Source: a virus
Lineage: Duplodnaviria > Heunggongvirae > Uroviricota > Caudoviricetes
Length of the DNA: 39,386 nt
Reading direction: 5' to 3' (one strand)
IMG/VR virus record: IMGVR_UViG_642979322_000008
Shown here piece after piece: positions 9,800-39,386 of this stretch. Below the pieces are notes generated by a model. The model saw only the letters and a list, made by a program, of their open reading frames with translations, searched no databases and was not told the DNA's origin. Position 1 is the stretch's first letter. The number at the start of each line of letters is the position of its first letter. The translations under genes were made by a program, and so were the position numbers.

Positions 9800-10225
9800 A
9801 TGGCAGAAACTCAGATGAGCATGTTTGGTGGTGACAGTGAGCAACTGCACGCCCTTATCGACCGCCTTGATGACATCCCTGATGATGTTCTCAAAAAGAA
9901 CTGGCCGCGGACCCTGTCAGAACTGGTTGAAGTCACCGGCGCAGAACTTCAGCGTCAGGGGATTGAGCCGGTACTGGCCGGTAAACTGGCACGCAAGGTG
10001 GCTGCGGCTCAGGCAGCCTATATGGGCGGACGGGGTTATTACCTGCCGGTCGGGGAATCTCTCTTTGCCGAGCTGCGAAACAATGAGATATTTTCGCGCT
10101 GGGACCGGGGCGAGAAAATTGAATCCCTTCGCCGCCATTACCGGATGTCAGAAACCCAGATTTATACCGTCATACGCGAACAGCGCCGTCTGCATCTGGC
10201 AAGAACGCAACCGCCACTTTTCTGA
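9800..10225 (+). CDS. Mor/C-family transcription activator (middle/late gene activator)
   Basis: 141-aa ORF with C-terminal HTH (ETQIYTVIREQRRL); architecture like Mu Mor and C; only one such gene found. Confidence 0.75.
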   Translation: MAETQMSMFGGDSEQLHALIDRLDDIPDDVLKKNWPRTLSELVEVTGAELQRQGIEPVLAGKLARKVAAAQAAYMGGRGYYLPVGESLFAELRNNEIFSRWDRGEKIESLRRHYRMSETQIYTVIREQRRLHLARTQPPLF

Positions 10226-16112: not shown

Positions 16113-17421
16113 TTTAGGTTATGCCGCCACCCTTCCCTCAAAAGAGGCGGTGGCATACTTCCGCGCCAAAGGGGCGCATATCAGCTGGAACTGGTTCGAA
16201 ACAGACGCAGATGTTCATGCCCGATCGTTCACGGCGGCAAAAGCGGCACGCCTGGACGTACTGACCACACTACAGGCGGAAGTGCAACGGGCCATTGATG
16301 AGGGGATTTCACAGAAAGCATTTATCCGCACACTGACACCCCGCCTGCAAAAGCTGGGATGGTGGGGGAAGCAGATTGTGGTGGACAGCGCCGGTAACGC
16401 AGAAGAAGTACAGCTGGGCAGTCCCCGCCGTCTGGCGCTGATTTACAACGTGAACACCCGCGTGGCTTACAATGCCGGGCGTTACACGCAGATGATGAAC
16501 AACACGGACACGCATCCGTTCTGGCAGTATGTGGCGGTCATGGACAGCCGTACCCGCCCGTCGCATTCCACCCTTAACGGTCTGGTATTCCGCTATGATG
16601 ATCCGTTCTGGAAAACACACTACCCACCCAATGGCTGGAACTGCCGCTGCCGTGTGCGGCCATTGTCTCAGGCCCGTCTGGATGCAATGGGGTTATCCGT
16701 TTCATCCGGTGAGGATCATCTCTCCACCCGCAATGTTGAGGCTGGCGTGGATAAACAGACCGGAGAAGTCAGAGAAATGCCGGTGACCACATATTCAGAT
16801 GGCACCAGAACCATGACACCGGATGTGGGCTGGTCATATAACCCCGGTTCGGCGGCGTTCGGCACAGACCAGGCGCTGATCCGTAAACTGATCGAGGTGA
16901 AAAGCCCGGCGTTACGGGAAATGGTGGTTCAGGAGATGAACAACAGCCCGGAGCGGCAGCTGGCGTTCCGCATCTGGGCAAAAAATATCATGAAAACCCG
17001 GCGCGGTGGTCACGATATCCGCACGCTGGGCTTTATGACCGAAAGTATTGCGCAGGCAGTGGAAAGCCGGACAGGAACGCCACCGGCCCGCCTGCTGGCG
17101 ATGAGCGGTAAAAATGTGCTCCATGCGGACAGTGTGAAACATCAGAATGACGGTATCGCCCTGACGCCGGAGGATTTCGCGCAGCTTCCCGCCATGCTGG
17201 CTGCCCCCGATGCCGTGCTGTGGGATCATGTCCATCAGAACCTGCTTTACATCACTGAAACCCGTGACGGAACGGCAAAGATTGCCGTCAATGCGCCTTA
17301 TGGTGTGAAGCGCCAGCCGGATAAGCTGGATGTGGTAATTAATGCTTACCGGGTAAATAAATTTGATATTGAAAAAGCAATAGAGGGCGGAAAGCTGGAA
17401 CTACTGGAAGGTAAATTGTAA
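16096..17421 (+). CDS. head morphogenesis protein, Mu F (gp30)-like
   Basis: 441-aa ORF following portal, overlapping start. Confidence 0.75.
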   Translation: MAQGIDLGYAATLPSKEAVAYFRAKGAHISWNWFETDADVHARSFTAAKAARLDVLTTLQAEVQRAIDEGISQKAFIRTLTPRLQKLGWWGKQIVVDSAGNAEEVQLGSPRRLALIYNVNTRVAYNAGRYTQMMNNTDTHPFWQYVAVMDSRTRPSHSTLNGLVFRYDDPFWKTHYPPNGWNCRCRVRPLSQARLDAMGLSVSSGEDHLSTRNVEAGVDKQTGEVREMPVTTYSDGTRTMTPDVGWSYNPGSAAFGTDQALIRKLIEVKSPALREMVVQEMNNSPERQLAFRIWAKNIMKTRRGGHDIRTLGFMTESIAQAVESRTGTPPARLLAMSGKNVLHADSVKHQNDGIALTPEDFAQLPAMLAAPDAVLWDHVHQNLLYITETRDGTAKIAVNAPYGVKRQPDKLDVVINAYRVNKFDIEKAIEGGKLELLEGKL

Positions 17422-17539
17422 GCCGGTGACGGGGGTCGAACCCGCATAAACATATGACCCCTGAGGGTTTATGCCGCTTTACCAGTTAAGAGTACACCGG
17501 CCTGTATTTATTTTAATCAGATAGTTTTAAGGAGGCAAC

Positions 17540-20304: not shown

Positions 20305-20733
20305 ATGAATGAACATCACACTGTGGCAGCAACAGATGATTCAGGTCTTCAGGTCAGTGGTGACAATTCTGTCACGGTGCTGGCAGAAGTGCGTTGCAGT
20401 CGTTCGGCGTTTCGTCGTGCGGGGTTCCTGTTCACGCGTGGACGTCAGCAGGTTGAGGTCACCCCGGAGCAGCTTGCCCGACTGGAGGAGGAGCCATGCC
20501 TCACTGTGCGAATACTACAGACGTCTGCTGATGATGCGGGGAGCGTGGCGGGTGTGGTTCATGCAGTGGCCGGTACAGATTTAGCCGAAGCCGAAGCCGA
20601 AGCCGAAGCCGAAGCCGAAGCCGAAGCCGAAGCCGAAGCCGAAGCCGAAGCCGAAGCCGAAGCCGAAGCCGAAGCCGGACAGGATGCTCCCCGGAAAAAG
20701 ACCGGTAACAAAGCGGAACAGGCCCGTGCATGA
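20305..20733 (+). CDS. small head-region protein with (Ala-Glu)15 tract
   Basis: 142-aa ORF with GGAGG RBS; contains in-frame (GCCGAA)15. Confidence 0.55.
   Translation: MNEHHTVAATDDSGLQVSGDNSVTVLAEVRCSRSAFRRAGFLFTRGRQQVEVTPEQLARLEEEPCLTVRILQTSADDAGSVAGVVHAVAGTDLAEAEAEAEAEAEAEAEAEAEAEAEAEAEAEAGQDAPRKKTGNKAEQARA
20584..20673 (+). repeat. perfect hexanucleotide tandem repeat (GCCGAA)x15
   Basis: Seen directly: 15 uninterrupted GCCGAA units followed by GCCGGA. Confidence 0.95.
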
Positions 20734-33601: not shown

Positions 33602-34162
33602 ATGCTGATTGGCTATATACGCGTATCAACAAATGACCAGAACACAGGTTTACAAAGAAATGCGCTGGAATGTGCAGGATGTGAGCAGATTTTTGAAGAT
33701 AAAATGAGTGGTAAAACGACACAGCGGCCGGGACTGAAGCGGGCACTGAAGAAACTAAAACCCGGTGACACACTGATGGTCTGGAAACTGGACAGGCTGG
33801 GGCGCAGTATGCGCCACCTTGTTGCGCTGACAGATGAATTACAGCAACAGGGGATAAATTTTCGTAGTCTTACTGACAACATTGATACGTCAACCCCCAT
33901 GGGGCGCTTCTTTTTTCACATAATGGGTGCGCTGGCAGAAATGGAGCGTGAATTAATTGTCGAACGGACACGGGCTGGTCTTGCAGCTGCCCGTGAAAGG
34001 GGACGAACCGGCGGCAGACCCCGTCGTCTCACGCAGGAACAATACGAGCAGGTCGGGCGTTTACTGGCCGGGGGTGTCAGTCGAAGACAGGTGGCACTTA
34101 TTTTTGATATCGGCCTTTCAACCCTTTATCGTTATTATCCTGCGAGCGTTTCGGAAAAATAA
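33602..34162 (+). CDS. gin: serine-recombinase DNA invertase (Gin/Pin/Cin/Hin family)
   Basis: 186 aa; MLIGYIRVSTNDQ with catalytic Ser, RSLTDxIDTSxPMGRFFFHxMGALAEMERELIxERT and C-terminal HTH match Mu Gin almost throughout, as recalled. Confidence 0.93.
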   Translation: MLIGYIRVSTNDQNTGLQRNALECAGCEQIFEDKMSGKTTQRPGLKRALKKLKPGDTLMVWKLDRLGRSMRHLVALTDELQQQGINFRSLTDNIDTSTPMGRFFFHIMGALAEMERELIVERTRAGLAAARERGRTGGRPRRLTQEQYEQVGRLLAGGVSRRQVALIFDIGLSTLYRYYPASVSEK

Positions 34163-34261: not shown

Positions 34262-36301
34262 ATGACGTCCAAATGGGTTCAACTATCATCAATGCCCGGA
34301 AACTTTACTGTTAAAGTTTCCGGTGGTACAGCGGCATTTCTTGAGGCTCCCTTTCCTCCGGCCGAAACAAAAGGAGGAATGACATTTGCTGACTGTCTCA
34401 TCAGTTTTAATACACGGGATTGCCTGTGGGTAAGGCCAGTATCCGGTGATCCGAGTGTGGAAATTACCGGAGCGGGTATTGGTGCGGTCATTCCGTTAAG
34501 TGCTGATGTTGCCGGTACTGCTGAACCGTCAGACTGGGATAATGCTGAAACACATACCCGTCCGTCAGGAAATGAAACTGCTTCCAGCTCCCCTTCCTGG
34601 TATTACGTGGTGGTTCTTGCTGGTCAGTCAAACGGTATGGCTTACGGTGAAGGTCTGCCACTGCCGGAGACATATGACCGCCCCGAACCGCGTATTATGC
34701 AGTTAGCCCGTCGCAGTACAGTCACGCCGGGAGGTAAAGCCTGTCAGTATAACGACATCATTCTGGCCGACCACTGTCTGCATGATGTGCAGGATATGAG
34801 TGGAAAAAATCACCCGAAAGCGGATGTGGCTAAAGGGCAATATGGCACCGTGGGTCAGGGGCTTCACATTGCCAAAAAACTGCTGCCGTTTATTCCGGCA
34901 GATGCGGGGATTCTGCTGGTTCCCTGCTGCCGTGGTGGTTCTGCATTCACGGCGGGTGCTGACGGCACGTACAGTGACAGCACGGGTGCTTCAGAGGACT
35001 CAGCCCGCTGGGGTGTGGATAAGCCGCTGTATAAGGACTTAATCAGCCGGACAAAAGCGGCACTGGCGAAGAACCCGAAAAACCGCCTGCTTGCTGTGGT
35101 GTGGATGCAGGGCGAGTTTGATATTGATGCGAAGCCGACGGAGCATTCCGCGCTGTTTCTGGCGATGGTGGAAAAATTCCGCGCAGACCTGGCTGAACAG
35201 GCGGAACAGTGTACCGGTGGCAGTGCTGCTGGCGTTCCGTGGATTTGTGGCGATACCACGTATTTCTGGAAACAGAAAAATGAACCGGCATACCAGGCAA
35301 TCTATGGCGGCTACAAAAACAAAACAGATAAAAACATTCATTTCGTTCCATTAATGACAGATGAAAATGACGCGAATGTACCCACCAACAATCCGGCAGA
35401 AGACCCGGATATTGAATCCATTGGTTATTACGGCTCAACGTGGCGTAACAGTGCCGCCACCTGGACATCTGCGGACCGGGCCAGCCATTTCAGTTCATGG
35501 GCACGTCGTGGGATTATTTCCGACCGTCTGGCCACGGCAGTTCTGACTCATGCGGGGCGAACCACAGTAAAAGCCGATGTTCCATCTTCTGAAACTGAAG
35601 CACCAGTGCCGTCACCTTCAGAAACTGAAGCAGTAACCACAACACTGCTGTCTTATCGTGTCAGTGAGTCAGAAGGAAATCTGAAAGCCCAGGGCTGGGA
35701 GCCGGCTGGCGGTAAAGCTGAAATTATCAGTGATGCAGGAGGCACAGGTGGTAAGGCAATGAAACTGACCAAGGAAACAGGTAAATCATCCTGGTATCTG
35801 GATCATGATGCCGGTACTGGTGCTGAACTGCTGAAAAATGGTGGTTTAATCAGTTGTCGTTTTAAAGTACCTGGCGACCTGGTGGCAAACCAGTATGTCA
35901 TGGGGCTTTACTGGCCGGTTTCCTCTCTGCCGCAGGGTGTCACCCTGACAGGGGATGCAGGGAATAATCTGCTGGCATCGTTCTACATCCAGACAGACGC
36001 AAAAGACCTGAATGTGATGTACCACAATGCAAAAGTGGCAACAAATAACCAGAAACTGGGAACCTTTGGTGCATTTGATAATGAATGGCATACGCTGGCC
36101 TTCCGTTTTGCAGGAAATAACAGCCTTCAGGTTATTCCGGTTATTGATGGTCAGGATGGTGCCGCGTTTACCCTGACGCAGTCACCAGTAGGAACTTTCC
36201 CGGTGGACAAACTCCGCGTAACGGATATCACAAAAAATGCAACTTACCCGGTGCTGATTGACAGCATTGTGGTGGAAGTGAAAAAAGCGGTAACAGAATA
36301 A
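34262..36301 (+). CDS. SGNH/SASA-family carbohydrate O-acetylesterase-like protein (prophage NanS-p-like) with additional N- and C-terminal domains
   Basis: 679 aa; GQSN motif (VVVLAGQSNGMAYGEG) typical of sialate O-acetylesterase-type SGNH hydrolases; Ser/Thr/Pro/Glu linker (SETEAPVPSPSETEA) before a C-terminal beta-rich domain. Confidence 0.55.
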   Translation: MTSKWVQLSSMPGNFTVKVSGGTAAFLEAPFPPAETKGGMTFADCLISFNTRDCLWVRPVSGDPSVEITGAGIGAVIPLSADVAGTAEPSDWDNAETHTRPSGNETASSSPSWYYVVVLAGQSNGMAYGEGLPLPETYDRPEPRIMQLARRSTVTPGGKACQYNDIILADHCLHDVQDMSGKNHPKADVAKGQYGTVGQGLHIAKKLLPFIPADAGILLVPCCRGGSAFTAGADGTYSDSTGASEDSARWGVDKPLYKDLISRTKAALAKNPKNRLLAVVWMQGEFDIDAKPTEHSALFLAMVEKFRADLAEQAEQCTGGSAAGVPWICGDTTYFWKQKNEPAYQAIYGGYKNKTDKNIHFVPLMTDENDANVPTNNPAEDPDIESIGYYGSTWRNSAATWTSADRASHFSSWARRGIISDRLATAVLTHAGRTTVKADVPSSETEAPVPSPSETEAVTTTLLSYRVSESEGNLKAQGWEPAGGKAEIISDAGGTGGKAMKLTKETGKSSWYLDHDAGTGAELLKNGGLISCRFKVPGDLVANQYVMGLYWPVSSLPQGVTLTGDAGNNLLASFYIQTDAKDLNVMYHNAKVATNNQKLGTFGAFDNEWHTLAFRFAGNNSLQVIPVIDGQDGAAFTLTQSPVGTFPVDKLRVTDITKNATYPVLIDSIVVEVKKAVTE

Positions 36302-36307
36302 AAAAAT

Positions 36308-36334
36308 CCCGCCGGTCATGATATGGCTGGCGGG
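36308..36334 (-). terminator. GC-rich hairpin after the esterase gene with U-tract on the minus-strand side
   Basis: Stem CCCGCCGG / CTGGCGGG; A7 precedes it on the plus strand, which gives T7 after it on the minus strand. Confidence 0.35.
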
Positions 36335-36447
36335 AGCTACCTAACCCATAAAGGAAAATAAAAATACTCCCGAAGGAGTGGTTATCAGTCGCTTCGATGT
36401 TTTTACCCGATAACGAATTATGTAGTCAATATCAAAGGTAAGGTTAT

Positions 36448-36630
36448 ATGACATTCGTTCATACAATGCTGCTTTATTTCTGCGCTGTGGTCAGTGCGTT
36501 ATATCTGGTGAGCGGTGGTTATAAGGTCATCAGAAATTATATTCGCCGTAAAATTGATGATGCGGCAGCTGAAAAACTCAGTAAAACAGCACAGGCACCG
36601 TCATCCCCAAACGACCCGACCCCGCTCTGA
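36448..36630 (+). CDS. small membrane protein (one TM helix)
   Basis: 60-aa ORF, RBS AAGGTAAGG; hydrophobic N-terminus MLLYFCAVVSALYLVSGG. Confidence 0.4.
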   Translation: MTFVHTMLLYFCAVVSALYLVSGGYKVIRNYIRRKIDDAAAEKLSKTAQAPSSPNDPTPL

Positions 36631-36665
36631 TAACGGGGCAATATACCTGCAAAAGGAGAATATTC

Positions 36666-36911
36666 ATGCCAGAGATTAAAGGCACGGTTACTGAAGAGCT
36701 TGTCAAACAGGCACTTTATTCTGAAGAAGTGAACCGCGTGCTGAAGGCGCAGGTTCGCAAGGATTTTGAGGCACAAATCGACGCATATGTTGATGAAGTG
36801 CTGGCCCGAATGGTTGGCCGTTCTCCGGCTGAAAACAGCACGGAAAATGATCCTCAACCCGTAGAGCAACCAGAGCCGGTTCAGCCCGGAACTGACGGTA
36901 CTATGATGTAA
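36666..36911 (+). CDS. hypothetical acidic small protein
   Basis: 81-aa ORF, RBS AAAGGAG 7 nt upstream of ATG. Confidence 0.45.
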   Translation: MPEIKGTVTEELVKQALYSEEVNRVLKAQVRKDFEAQIDAYVDEVLARMVGRSPAENSTENDPQPVEQPEPVQPGTDGTMM

Positions 36912-36920
36912 CAATACCGA

Positions 36921-36940
36921 CCGGCAGGTTTCCCTGCCGG
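36921..36940 (+). terminator. hairpin terminator candidate after small gene
   Basis: Stem CCGGCAGG / CCTGCCGG, loop TTTC, followed by GTGAGTTTGTT. Confidence 0.45.
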
Positions 36941-37229
36941 GTGAGTTTGTTAATGCACGTTTTGTGTATTTTCCCTCCTGGGAGAACAGGCAGGACATAT
37001 CAGCATCCTGAAACAGGAAGCATTTTTGGGTTTGTATGTCTTGCCATTTTGAGATCGAGAACGGCGATAGATGAGCTGTAAGGGAGTCTTACAGGCAGGG
37101 CAAACAGGCTCTTTCATCCATGATAAAGATCTCCTTTTTATGCATCTCTGCTTTACAGGAGACCGGGGAATATCATAGGATACGCCACGAGCTCGAAGTA
37201 AAGCATTGATGCAAGTTTTTACAGATTGA

Positions 37230-37262
37230 CCCAGCATAGTTCCAGCTATGCTGGGTTTCACT
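37230..37262 (+). terminator. rho-independent terminator
   Basis: Perfect 10-bp stem CCCAGCATAG / CTATGCTGGG with loop TTCCAG followed by TTTCACTTTT. Confidence 0.6.
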
Positions 37263-37299
37263 TTTATGTAGTATCCTGTTGATTTGAAACATACTACAT

Positions 37300-37528
37300 A
37301 TACGCGTGATCCTACCTTCACTGTATAAAAAGTCAATAAAATGATCATTTTATGATCGTTTTCACCACCTAACTCTTCGTTTTCTTTAAGTAAATAATCA
37401 CCTCCCTGAATCATTGTTGATGACTTTTCAATCTATTTGTTGTATCAATTAAACAAATCGAATCGATCGTTTTTGTCGATCGATTGCATGAGAAAGGCAT
37501 CAACAACAAAGCAGGAGGTTATGCGGTC
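37300..37528. promoter_or_regulatory. com-mom upstream control region with GATC cluster
   Basis: GATC at about 37309, 37343, 37354, 37459 and 37473; palindrome CGATCG-N-CGATCG; RBS AGGAGG before com ATG. Confidence 0.5.
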
Positions 37529-37729
37529 ATGTATCGAAACATACGGTGCCGACACTGCAATAAGCTACTGGCACGGGCCAGTTTCAGTTATCTGGAAGTA
37601 AAATGTCCGCGCTGTAAAACCCTCAATCAAATCACATCTCCGAGCGCCACAGAGCACCCCACATACACAAGGAAATCCTGTCGTGGGGAACAGAAAGCAA
37701 GTCACATCCCGAATCATCAGCACGCCTGA
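37529..37729 (+). CDS. com: Com zinc-finger translational activator of mom
   Basis: [17 protein letters not shown]...EVKCPRCK matches Mu Com Cys4 pattern (IRCKNCNKLL...EIRCPRCK) as recalled; overlaps the mom start. Confidence 0.8.
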
Positions 37730-38420
37730 ACTTATTCGCTATAACGACAATATCGTTGGTTATGGCTCCCGTGAGTTGCGGGTTGAGACAATAAGTTGCT
37801 GGCTGGCCAGACTGGTCATCGTCAATAAACATTACAGCCACCGTTTCGTAAATAACTCCTACCTTCATCTGGGCATATTTTCAGAACGGGAACTTGTTGG
37901 CGTAATGCAATGGGGTTACGCCCTTAACCCAAACAGTGGTGCACGCGTCGTAACGGGTACGCAGAACCGAGAATATATGGAGCTTAACCGGCTATGGCTG
38001 CATGACTGTATGCCGAGAAACTCCGAATCAAGGGCAATCAGTTACGCGCTCAAGCTAATCAGGCAGCTTTATCCGCAGGTACAGTGGGTTCAGTCGTTTG
38101 CAGATGAGCGTTGTGGCTGTCTTGGTGTCGTGTATCAGGCAAGCAATTTTGATTATGTAGGCAGCCATGAATCAATATTCTATGAACTTGATGGCGAGTG
38201 GTATCACGAGATTTGCAGGAATGCCATTAAACGAGGCGGACAACGAGGTGAACATCTGAGGGCTAATATTGACAGAGCCAGTGTTCATAAGTTCCGACAG
38301 TTTCGTTACATCCGGTTTCTGAACAAGAGGGCCAGAAAACGCCTCAACACAAAGCTATTCAAAGTCCAGCCTTACCCAAAACCACAAACAGTTAAAACTG
38401 GTTTGAAAGAGAGTGAATGA
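37683..38420 (+). CDS. mom: Mom DNA-modification enzyme (adenine N6-carbamoylmethylation)
   Basis: 245-aa ORF directly after and overlapping com, last gene before the prophage right end; start codon uncertain. Confidence 0.8.
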
Positions 38421-38439: not shown

Positions 38440-38550
38440 AAAACTCAAAAGAAAAGCGCCGATTTAGTATCAAATAAGTTGCGTATCGGCGTTTTTCAGC
38501 GGTATCAAATGAAATGCAAATCGGTATCAAAAAAATCGCCGCGCTATACA
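38440..38550. repeat. prophage right end (attR) with candidate transposase-binding repeats
   Basis: Three GTATCAAA-type repeats (about 38467, 38502, 38524); element ends ...CTATACA, whose complement reads 5'-TGTAT like the Mu left-end start. Confidence 0.55.
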
Positions 38551-39386
38551 CGCATCGTTCCATTCAGCAGCGCGATATCTGCATGGTGTTTCAGTCATAC
38601 GCTCTGTTCCCGCATATGTCGCTGGGCGAAAACGTCGGCTACGGGTTAAAGATGCTCGGCGTGTCGCGTAGCGAAGTAAAGCAGCGGGTGAAAGAGGCGC
38701 TGGCAATGGTGGATCTGGAAGGGTTCGAGGACCGCTATGTCGACCAGATTTCCGGTGGTCAGCAACAGCGCGTGGCGCTGGCCCGCGCGTTGATCCTCAA
38801 ACCAAAGGTGCTGCTGTTTGATGAGCCGTTAAGTAACCTCGATGCCAACCTGCGCCGCAGCATGCGCGATAAGATCCGCGAGCTGCAAAAGCAGTTTAAT
38901 ATCACGTCGCTCTACGTGACTCACGATCAAAGTGAGGCCTTCGCGGTTTCCGACACTGTGCTGGTGATGAATAAAGGTCACATCATGCAGATTGGCTCAC
39001 CGCAGGATCTCTATCGTCAGCCAGCCTCCCGCTTTATGGCAAGTTTTATGGGCGACGCCAACCTGTTCCCGGCGAACTTTAGCGAAGAGTATGTCGATAT
39101 CTACGGTTATCGCCTGCCGCGCGCGGCGCATTTCCCGGTGCAAGGTAGCGGCACCGTCGGCATTCGCCCGGAAGCCATCACCTTAAGCAATCACGGCGAA
39201 GAGAGTCAGCGTTGTGTTATTCGCCATGTCGCCTACATGGGGCCGCAGTACGAAGTGACCGTAGAGTGGCATGGACAGGAGATTTTATTACAAGTAAACG
39301 CCACCCGTTTACAGCCCGATATTGGTGAGCACTATTACCTCGAAATCCATCCTTACGGGATGTTTGTTTTAGCGGATGCGGCATAA
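38551..39386 (+). pseudogene. fbpC: host ABC-transporter ATP-binding protein gene (ferric-uptake FbpC/AfuC-like), 5' part missing due to prophage insertion
   Basis: Frame reads ...[23 protein letters not shown] (Q-loop), LSGGQQQRV signature, Walker B LLFDEP, H-loop VTHDQ and C-terminal regulatory domain; Walker A absent, so the N-terminal ~60 codons lie elsewhere. Gene name from recalled similarity only. Confidence 0.6.

Follow-up and report, generated by a model that had tools for sequence, protein, structure and literature searches.

A com–mom module of the Mu type with a GUG start codon for mom in a Mu-like prophage

The com and mom genes of bacteriophage Mu, like those of the phages D108 and SfMu, occupy, in this order, the right end of the genome of a transposable phage. 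The Mu mom promoter Pmom is controlled by the late activator C, which acts at a TTAT-N6-ATAA site, and the GATC cluster upstream of com is treated as the Dam/OxyR control region of this promoter. The start codon of Mu mom is a GUG located in the stem of a translation inhibition structure (TIS), and the Com protein recognizes the SELEX-defined motif 5'-CC(N)2-3GAG-3', with GAAUGCCUGCGAGCAUCCCACGGAG as its target in Mu (PMC6483171). [quoted passage not shown] The residues R111, S124, D149, R151, H58, Y59, W48, Y159 and W181 of Mu Mom, in the numbering of that study, are required or important for this activity.

Related modules have been described in other Mu-like phages. Sp18 has been described as an intact Mu-like prophage of E. 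coli O157 (PMC2669165), and homologs of Mom and of its regulators are encoded in it at the equivalent position (PMC3299994). Moreover, com genes are paired with DNA methyltransferase genes in B3, FluMu and Pnm1, and the methyltransferase gene has been reported to carry possible Com sites at its 5' end (PMC3299994). The genetic composition of the com–mom module in a phage DNA stretch of 39,386 nucleotides, referred to as the window, was compared with these systems.

Genes of the module and prophage context

The module comprises the following genes and translation signals:

37515 to 37520, plus strand: AGGAGG, ribosome-binding site of com as read from the sequence, 8 nt 5' of the ATG at 37529
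37529 to 37729, plus strand: com, 66 aa, ATG start, Cys4 zinc ribbon C7/C10/C26/C29, predicted activator of mom translation
37683 to 38420, plus strand: mom, 245 aa, GUG start, predicted GNAT-fold DNA adenine-modifying enzyme
37683 to 37729, plus strand: com/mom overlap of 47 nt, mom being read in the +1 frame with respect to com

The initial annotation had recognized both genes, and this assignment was confirmed by matches of the com product to the Pfam family Zn_ribbon_Com (PF10122; E 1.9e-12, 46.9 bits at a cutoff of 22.9) and of the mom product to the Mom family (PF25680; E 4e-77). The cysteines C7, C10, C26 and C29 of Com are invariant among 14 aligned homologs, and the ribosome-binding site column of com contains an invariant GAG in seven aligned relatives, with the complete AGGAGG in most of them. 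The zinc ribbon of Mu Com is formed by Cys6, 9, 26 and 29. As the identity between Com and its Mu counterpart is only about 43–46%, the binding specificity of Com is assumed. Mom shares ~80% identity with Mu Mom in a 10-sequence alignment, and the residues R103, S116, D141, R143, H50, Y51, W40, Y151 and W173 correspond, in this order, to the nine residues of Mu Mom listed above. All nine are invariant in the alignment, and by homology the chemistry of the enzyme would be that of Mu Mom. The ORF of 244–245 aa is intact in each of the 25 closely related viral contigs that contain a complete mom gene. Additionally, RefSeq places com and mom at identical coordinates in E. coli O157:H7 strain M1300706002 and names them 'Com family' and 'protein mom'. 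The com–mom module of the window is real, intact and ordinary. Two minus-strand ORFs within the com–mom region (37565-37723 and 37632-37868) were considered as well, and nothing supports either of them.

A mom gene lacking a detectable ORF for a Com zinc finger within 1.5 kb upstream was observed in the contigs L005, L008, L013-L016, L020, L096-L099 and L101-L104. These include contigs of Yersinia, Serratia and Sphingomonas, and candidate ATG start codons are present in most. Apparently, Mom proteins that are not under the control of Com exist.

The module is preceded by genes encoding a Mu-type transposase, an AAA ATPase in the position of Mu B, Gam, a Mor-family activator, Mu-type head and tail proteins and an invertase. 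The last position of mom is 38420, and the sequence of the disrupted host gene fbpC starts at 38550. This ferric-ion ABC transporter gene is interrupted by the phage, and only its C-terminal part follows the phage right end (window 38550-39386). The com–mom region was detected in 233 of 5426 complete E. coli genomes, with 226 containing most of the region, and it occupies many different insertion sites, in line with a phage that transposes.

Between the invertase gene (33602-34162) and com the window contains about 3.3 kb of cargo (34262-37414). This cargo includes a gene for a 679-aa protein with a sialic-acid acetylesterase domain (PF03629) and DUF6645, a DUF1378 gene, a DUF826 gene and a 154-aa minus-strand ORF (36950-37414). 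The latter may be no real gene, since it is not conserved in the sister prophage L002 and contains a strong terminator-like hairpin (37228-37257). A perfect tandem repeat of the hexanucleotide AGCCGA with 15.8 copies (20583-20677) is located within a gene of the head region. The sole difference between the window and strain M1300706002 over the whole 39 kb is one extra AGCCGA unit, which indicates that the copy number of this repeat varies between strains. A search of the whole window with ARAGORN yielded no tRNA or tmRNA, including no match to the 'tRNA-OTHER' feature that RefSeq lists on the minus strand of the matching genome at about 17421-17501.

The com/mom overlap and the start codon of mom

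The stop codon of com ends at 37729 and the mom ORF begins at 37683, which yields the 47-nt overlap reported in the initial annotation. The codon at 37683, given there as ATG, reads GTG. Nor did the view that the overlap is longer than in Mu hold, since com of Mu (NC_000929, 35768..35956) overlaps mom by 50 nt from the literature GUG at 35907, or by 80 nt from the RefSeq ATG at 35877. The frame relation is identical, as mom of Mu is likewise in the +1 frame relative to com. The RefSeq start codon of Mu mom is located 30 nt 5' of the literature GUG (NC_000929 35877-35907; L001 878-908), resulting in deduced proteins of 241 aa versus 231 aa, and the residue numbers in recent Mom papers refer to the longer ATG form.

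Among 39 distinct com–mom junctions drawn from one-genome-per-species contigs and viral contigs, the intact pairs have overlaps of 32–68 nt, with 50 nt in all Mu-type copies and 47 nt in all window-type copies. The overlap is thus a conserved design feature of the module and not a quirk of the window copy; it exists because the 3' end of com accommodates the predicted Com site and the inhibitory hairpin described below.

Apart from GTG 37683, the reading frame of mom contains no ATG, GTG or TTG codon between the upstream stop (just before 37602) and TTG 37776. The latter is the next in-frame candidate and corresponds to Leu32, which is located within the conserved Pfam Mom domain. The alignment of Mom homologs of other genera begins at residues 1–9 of the 37683 ORF, and in the 10-sequence alignment the N-terminus reads Met-Gly in eight sequences and the residues S9 and P15 are invariant. 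Moreover, a GUG homologous to 37683 was found in each of the 19 GUG-start relatives examined. The start codon of mom is the GUG at 37683, itself occluded by a hairpin, and as far as can be judged from these alignments a start further downstream is effectively excluded.

The initial annotation had raised the possibility that translation of mom truly begins further downstream, at a non-ATG codon hidden in an mRNA hairpin that is opened by Com. A non-ATG codon, occlusion by a predicted mRNA hairpin and an adjoining site of the Com type were all recovered; the downstream position was not, as 37683 itself is the start. The alignment of Mom homologs from residue 1 of the 37683 ORF stands against that proposal, yet a structure does occlude this codon, in its favour. 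The notion of an unusually long overlap that hides a different start is not correct.

In some of the close E. coli relatives L030 and L040-L048, the in-frame stop equivalent to window positions 37599-37601 is lost. The mom frame is then open across all of com, with ORFs of 310–361 aa, and gene callers could mis-annotate a long Mom protein that swallows com in such genomes.

Predicted RNA elements and the upstream control region

The following elements were identified at the junction of both genes and upstream of com:

37644 to 37657, plus strand: predicted Com-binding hairpin GCGCCACAGAGCAC, stem GCGC/GCAC, loop CACAGA, inside the com coding sequence
37657 to 37688, plus strand: TIS hairpin as a predicted fold, 5' arm CCCCAC (37657-62), 3' arm GUGGGG (37683-88) with the mom start codon
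37461 to 37485, no strand assigned: GATC inverted repeat, perfect 9-bp AATCGATCG-N7-CGATCGATT with two GATC (Dam) sites, putative control element by analogy to Mu

According to the folding model, GUG 37683 is part of the TIS stem. The ribosome-binding site of mom, AAGGA (37669-73), is located in the 20-nt loop (37663-82) and would be partly paired, its GG included, in an inner helix formed by 37667-72 and 37677-81. The stem is present in both the MFE and the centroid fold, with an energy of -14.3 kcal/mol and z = -1.65 relative to shuffled sequences. The z-scores of the single-sequence hairpins are modest (-1.0 to -3.2 versus shuffles), so that the case rests mainly on the comparison with relatives; the fold of the 141 nt from 37620 to 37760 as a whole is no more stable than that of shuffled sequences (z = 0.15). 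All 19 GUG-start relatives examined possess a perfect 5–6-nt arm that is complementary to the region of the start codon, and the loops measure 11–43 nt. Since the stem is nearly invariant, it offers little covariation; a compensatory pair, GCCAC/GUGGC, was found in one relative (L011). The RNAs of the window and of Mu fold alike into two adjacent hairpins. A search of Rfam revealed no matching family, and matches to a snoRNA and to a group II intron fragment were far below the thresholds and are attributed to chance. A direct repeat flanking the hairpins (AATCAAATCACATC and AAGCAAGTCACATC, two copies with 86% identity) was treated as chance as well, because its codon register differs from that of a similar sequence in Mu.

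The predicted Com-binding hairpin adjoins the TIS on its 5' side and contains CC-ACA-GAG, an instance of the CC-N3-GAG motif, with a C at the first loop position and GA closing the loop as in the Mu target. When the two are aligned, each base of the window sequence GCGC-CACAGA-GCAC has its counterpart in AUGC-CUGCGA-GCAU, the Com target of Mu. In an alignment of 14 distinct homologous sites, 94.6% of the stem cells form standard pairs and compensatory changes occur in three of the four pairs (A-U / G-C / G-U; U-A / C-G; G-C / A-U), which argues for selection on RNA structure at this position. The covariation score was reached by none of 500 shuffles, and all shifted registers scored far lower. 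Unpaired cells are confined to the window and its two nearest clade members, every other lineage examined being fully paired. In the window, the second pair of the 4-bp stem is a C·A mismatch (C37645·A37656), and in the E. coli variant L044 a synonymous C-to-U change restores this pair. Taken alone, the window hairpin is weak, with about -0.4 kcal/mol versus -2.4 for Mu; this energy was calculated with a 1x1 mismatch, as a forced 4-bp value is meaningless with one pair being C·A. The nucleotide C37657 is common to the Com hairpin and the TIS, as is the corresponding U in Mu, and the two hairpins accordingly compete. The conserved RNA segment GAGCA(U/C)CCCAC encodes the E-H-P-T stretch of Com tails, and E-H-P-T is conserved in many of these tails because the RNA elements are written into the 3' end of com. 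The comparative covariation support for the Com-binding hairpin, an element that is not represented by an Rfam family, is of modest use.

A further comparison was provided by sister Mu-like prophages in which mom is replaced by a gene for a 350-aa cytosine-5 DNA methyltransferase of the family PF00145 (L002 3230-4436, LC727881; L119-L125). This variant was detected in 10 of 5426 complete E. coli genomes, where it is annotated as DNA cytosine methyltransferase. Relative to window positions 37529-37700, these prophages have retained com, both hairpins and the sequence GUG-GGG-AAC-A in nearly identical form, and the homology stops about 10–17 nt past the GUG. The replacement therefore preserved exactly the start codon proposed for mom, which represents independent support for this assignment. 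On the viral contigs with Com homologs (L106-L185), these homologs overlap the 5' end of four classes of modification genes, encoding Mom or methyltransferases of the C5, N6/N4 and D12/Dam classes. Judged from these gene arrangements, Com looks like a general switch for DNA-modification genes, and the com–cytosine-methyltransferase relatives are a clean and modestly useful natural example of the re-use of this switch.

The GATC sites upstream of com are located at 37465 and 37478 within a dyad that is unique in the window and aligns with the GATC cluster of Mu. Their distances to the com ATG are 47 and 60 nt, compared with 74, 87 and 105 nt in Mu, which places them about 27 nt closer. This short layout recurs in the more distant relatives L004 and L050–L052 and thus represents a conserved variant and not a recent deletion. 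It is kept in relatives with a Mom protein of only 79–82% identity. A scan for sigma-70 promoters from 37337 to com found nothing, and no match to the Mu C box TTAT-N6-ATAA within one mismatch was detected in the region upstream of com. The intergenic regions before the lysozyme and protease genes, inspected by eye, contain no shared motif. A gene of the Mor/C family is present at 9800-10225. Since the C box of Mu is missing, the Mu model cannot simply be carried over to the transcription of this module. If the 5' untranslated region has a length similar to that in Mu, the GATC dyad would cover the -35 and spacer region, where Mu has its C box, and the methylation state or a dyad-binding protein could then gate the core promoter directly. 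We consider it a tentative idea, more doubtful than probable, that the transcription of com–mom in the clade comprising the window, L004 and L050–L052 is wired differently from that in Mu and that, as a separate matter, com, the hairpins and the GUG form a portable translational switch. A second conserved layout of the GATC control region is a modestly useful by-product of this comparison.

Proposed mechanism, alternatives and relation to known systems

With a probability of roughly 85%, the module represents a canonical Mu-type com–mom operon, in which Com opens the inhibitory hairpin, mom is translated, adenines are modified and restriction is resisted. The genes, the assignment of the start codon, the conservation and covariation of the RNA elements and the conservation of the catalytic residues were observed or computed, and the binding of Com, the opening of the hairpin, the chemistry of the enzyme and the transcriptional control would follow Mu by homology. 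The com–mom mRNA would be made late in infection, and com would be translated from ATG 37529 behind AGGAGG. On the same mRNA, mom would be silent, with AAGGA (37669-73) and GUG 37683 locked in the hairpin 37657-37688. Com would bind the predicted hairpin 37644-37657 just upstream of the TIS, and it is proposed that this binding opens the TIS because both hairpins use nucleotide C37657. From the opened TIS mom would be translated, and Mom would modify adenines of the phage DNA, which would then resist restriction enzymes.

The same arrangement of genes might also permit a coupling in cis, in which ribosomes translating com unfold the TIS and this unfolding, not the Com protein, mainly switches mom on. 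In every intact pair, the com ORF spans the hairpin and terminates after 32–68 nt of mom, and in the window its end lies 41 nt past the TIS, so that translation of com must melt the hairpin transiently. A Com hairpin with the SELEX-defined motif and compensatory changes is nevertheless an RNA structure for which a ribosome-only mechanism has no need, the zinc finger of Com is invariant, and for Mu, Com has been described to bind RNA and to activate the translation of mom (PMC6483171). The covariation of the Com hairpin and the invariance of the zinc finger favour a protein-dependent mechanism as in Mu; control mainly by ribosomes is improbable on this comparative evidence, and cis coupling and the binding of Com could act together. 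Still less credit is given to the view that the module is a silent relic, with an operon or prophage that is no longer expressed and with intact-looking genes lacking a current function. Such a view would fit with the lack of a recognizable sigma-70 promoter upstream of com, the missing Mu C box, the mismatched Com hairpin and the finding that Sp18 is not inducible by mitomycin C (PMC2669165). However, Sp18 is an intact prophage by prediction, and induction by the SOS response is not to be expected of Mu-type phages (PMC2669165). The ORFs of com and mom are intact in all close relatives examined, the catalytic residues of Mom are all kept, and the occurrence of the region at many chromosomal sites in 233 E. 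coli genomes is the mark of an actively transposing phage. The GATC layout and the C·A mismatch are conserved even in relatives with a Mom protein of only 80–82% identity, which argues for a functional variant rather than decay.

The least probable explanation, to which we attach almost no weight, is that the start of mom at 37683 is an annotation artefact, with the real start at a downstream non-ATG codon and a smaller overlap with com or none at all. Suspecting a mis-called start was reasonable, because the RefSeq record of Mu mom is itself over-annotated by 30 nt (ATG 35877) relative to the literature GUG, and the long form of Mu Mom tolerates the loss of 10 N-terminal residues (PMC13219725). 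Removal of 20 residues from this long form, only 10 of them beyond the GUG, already lowers the activity (PMC13219725), whereas a start at TTG 37776 would delete 31 conserved residues of Mom. Furthermore, 37683 is already the equivalent of the Mu GUG, and the relatives with an exchanged modification gene keep the sequence exactly to GUG-GGG-AAC-A. A downstream start is thus already contradicted by the sequence, and the canonical Mu-type operon starting mom at GUG 37683 remains the preferred reading.

The closest described counterpart of the module is the com–mom operon of Mu, also present in D108 and SfMu, which encodes members of both protein families in an identical gene order and likewise occupies the right end of a transposable phage genome. 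In both Mu and the window, mom is in the +1 frame with a nearly equal overlap (50 versus 47 nt), the GUG start is located in the 3' arm of a CCCAC/GUGGG hairpin, and a Com hairpin with a C....GA loop and CC-N3-GAG is located directly 5' of the TIS, with a GATC cluster upstream of com. The catalytic residues of Mu Mom are all present in the window. Sequence divergence is apparent, with identities to the Mu proteins of about 43–46% for Com and ~80% for Mom. In the window, the TIS consists of a stem of 6 bp and a loop of 20 nt, in which an inner helix covers the ribosome-binding site, in contrast to the 11-nt loop of Mu, and a C·A mismatch distinguishes the Com hairpin stem of the window from that of Mu. 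Upstream of com, the window contains two GATC sites (47 and 60 nt) versus three in Mu (74, 87 and 105 nt) and is devoid of the Mu C box TTAT-N6-ATAA. In Mu, com directly follows the invertase gene, whereas about 3.3 kb of cargo separates these genes in the window.

Among the other described systems, the B3, FluMu and Pnm1 modules and the E. coli C5 modules share with the window the overlap of the 3' end of com with the start of a DNA-modification gene. They differ from it in that this gene encodes a methyltransferase (PF00145, PF01555 or PF02086) and not Mom. Sp18 of strain Sakai is, like the phage of the window, a Mu-like prophage of O157:H7 with Mom. Set beside Sp18 by its published description, the phage of the window, which is inserted in fbpC, is presumably of the Sp18 type. 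The significance of the module beyond annotation is small: a widespread O157:H7 prophage carries an apparently functional anti-restriction modification with control of the Mu type, and its mom gene should be annotated from GUG 37683. The module itself is already known, as it represents a diverged yet fully recognizable version of the com–mom operon of Mu, with nothing new in kind.
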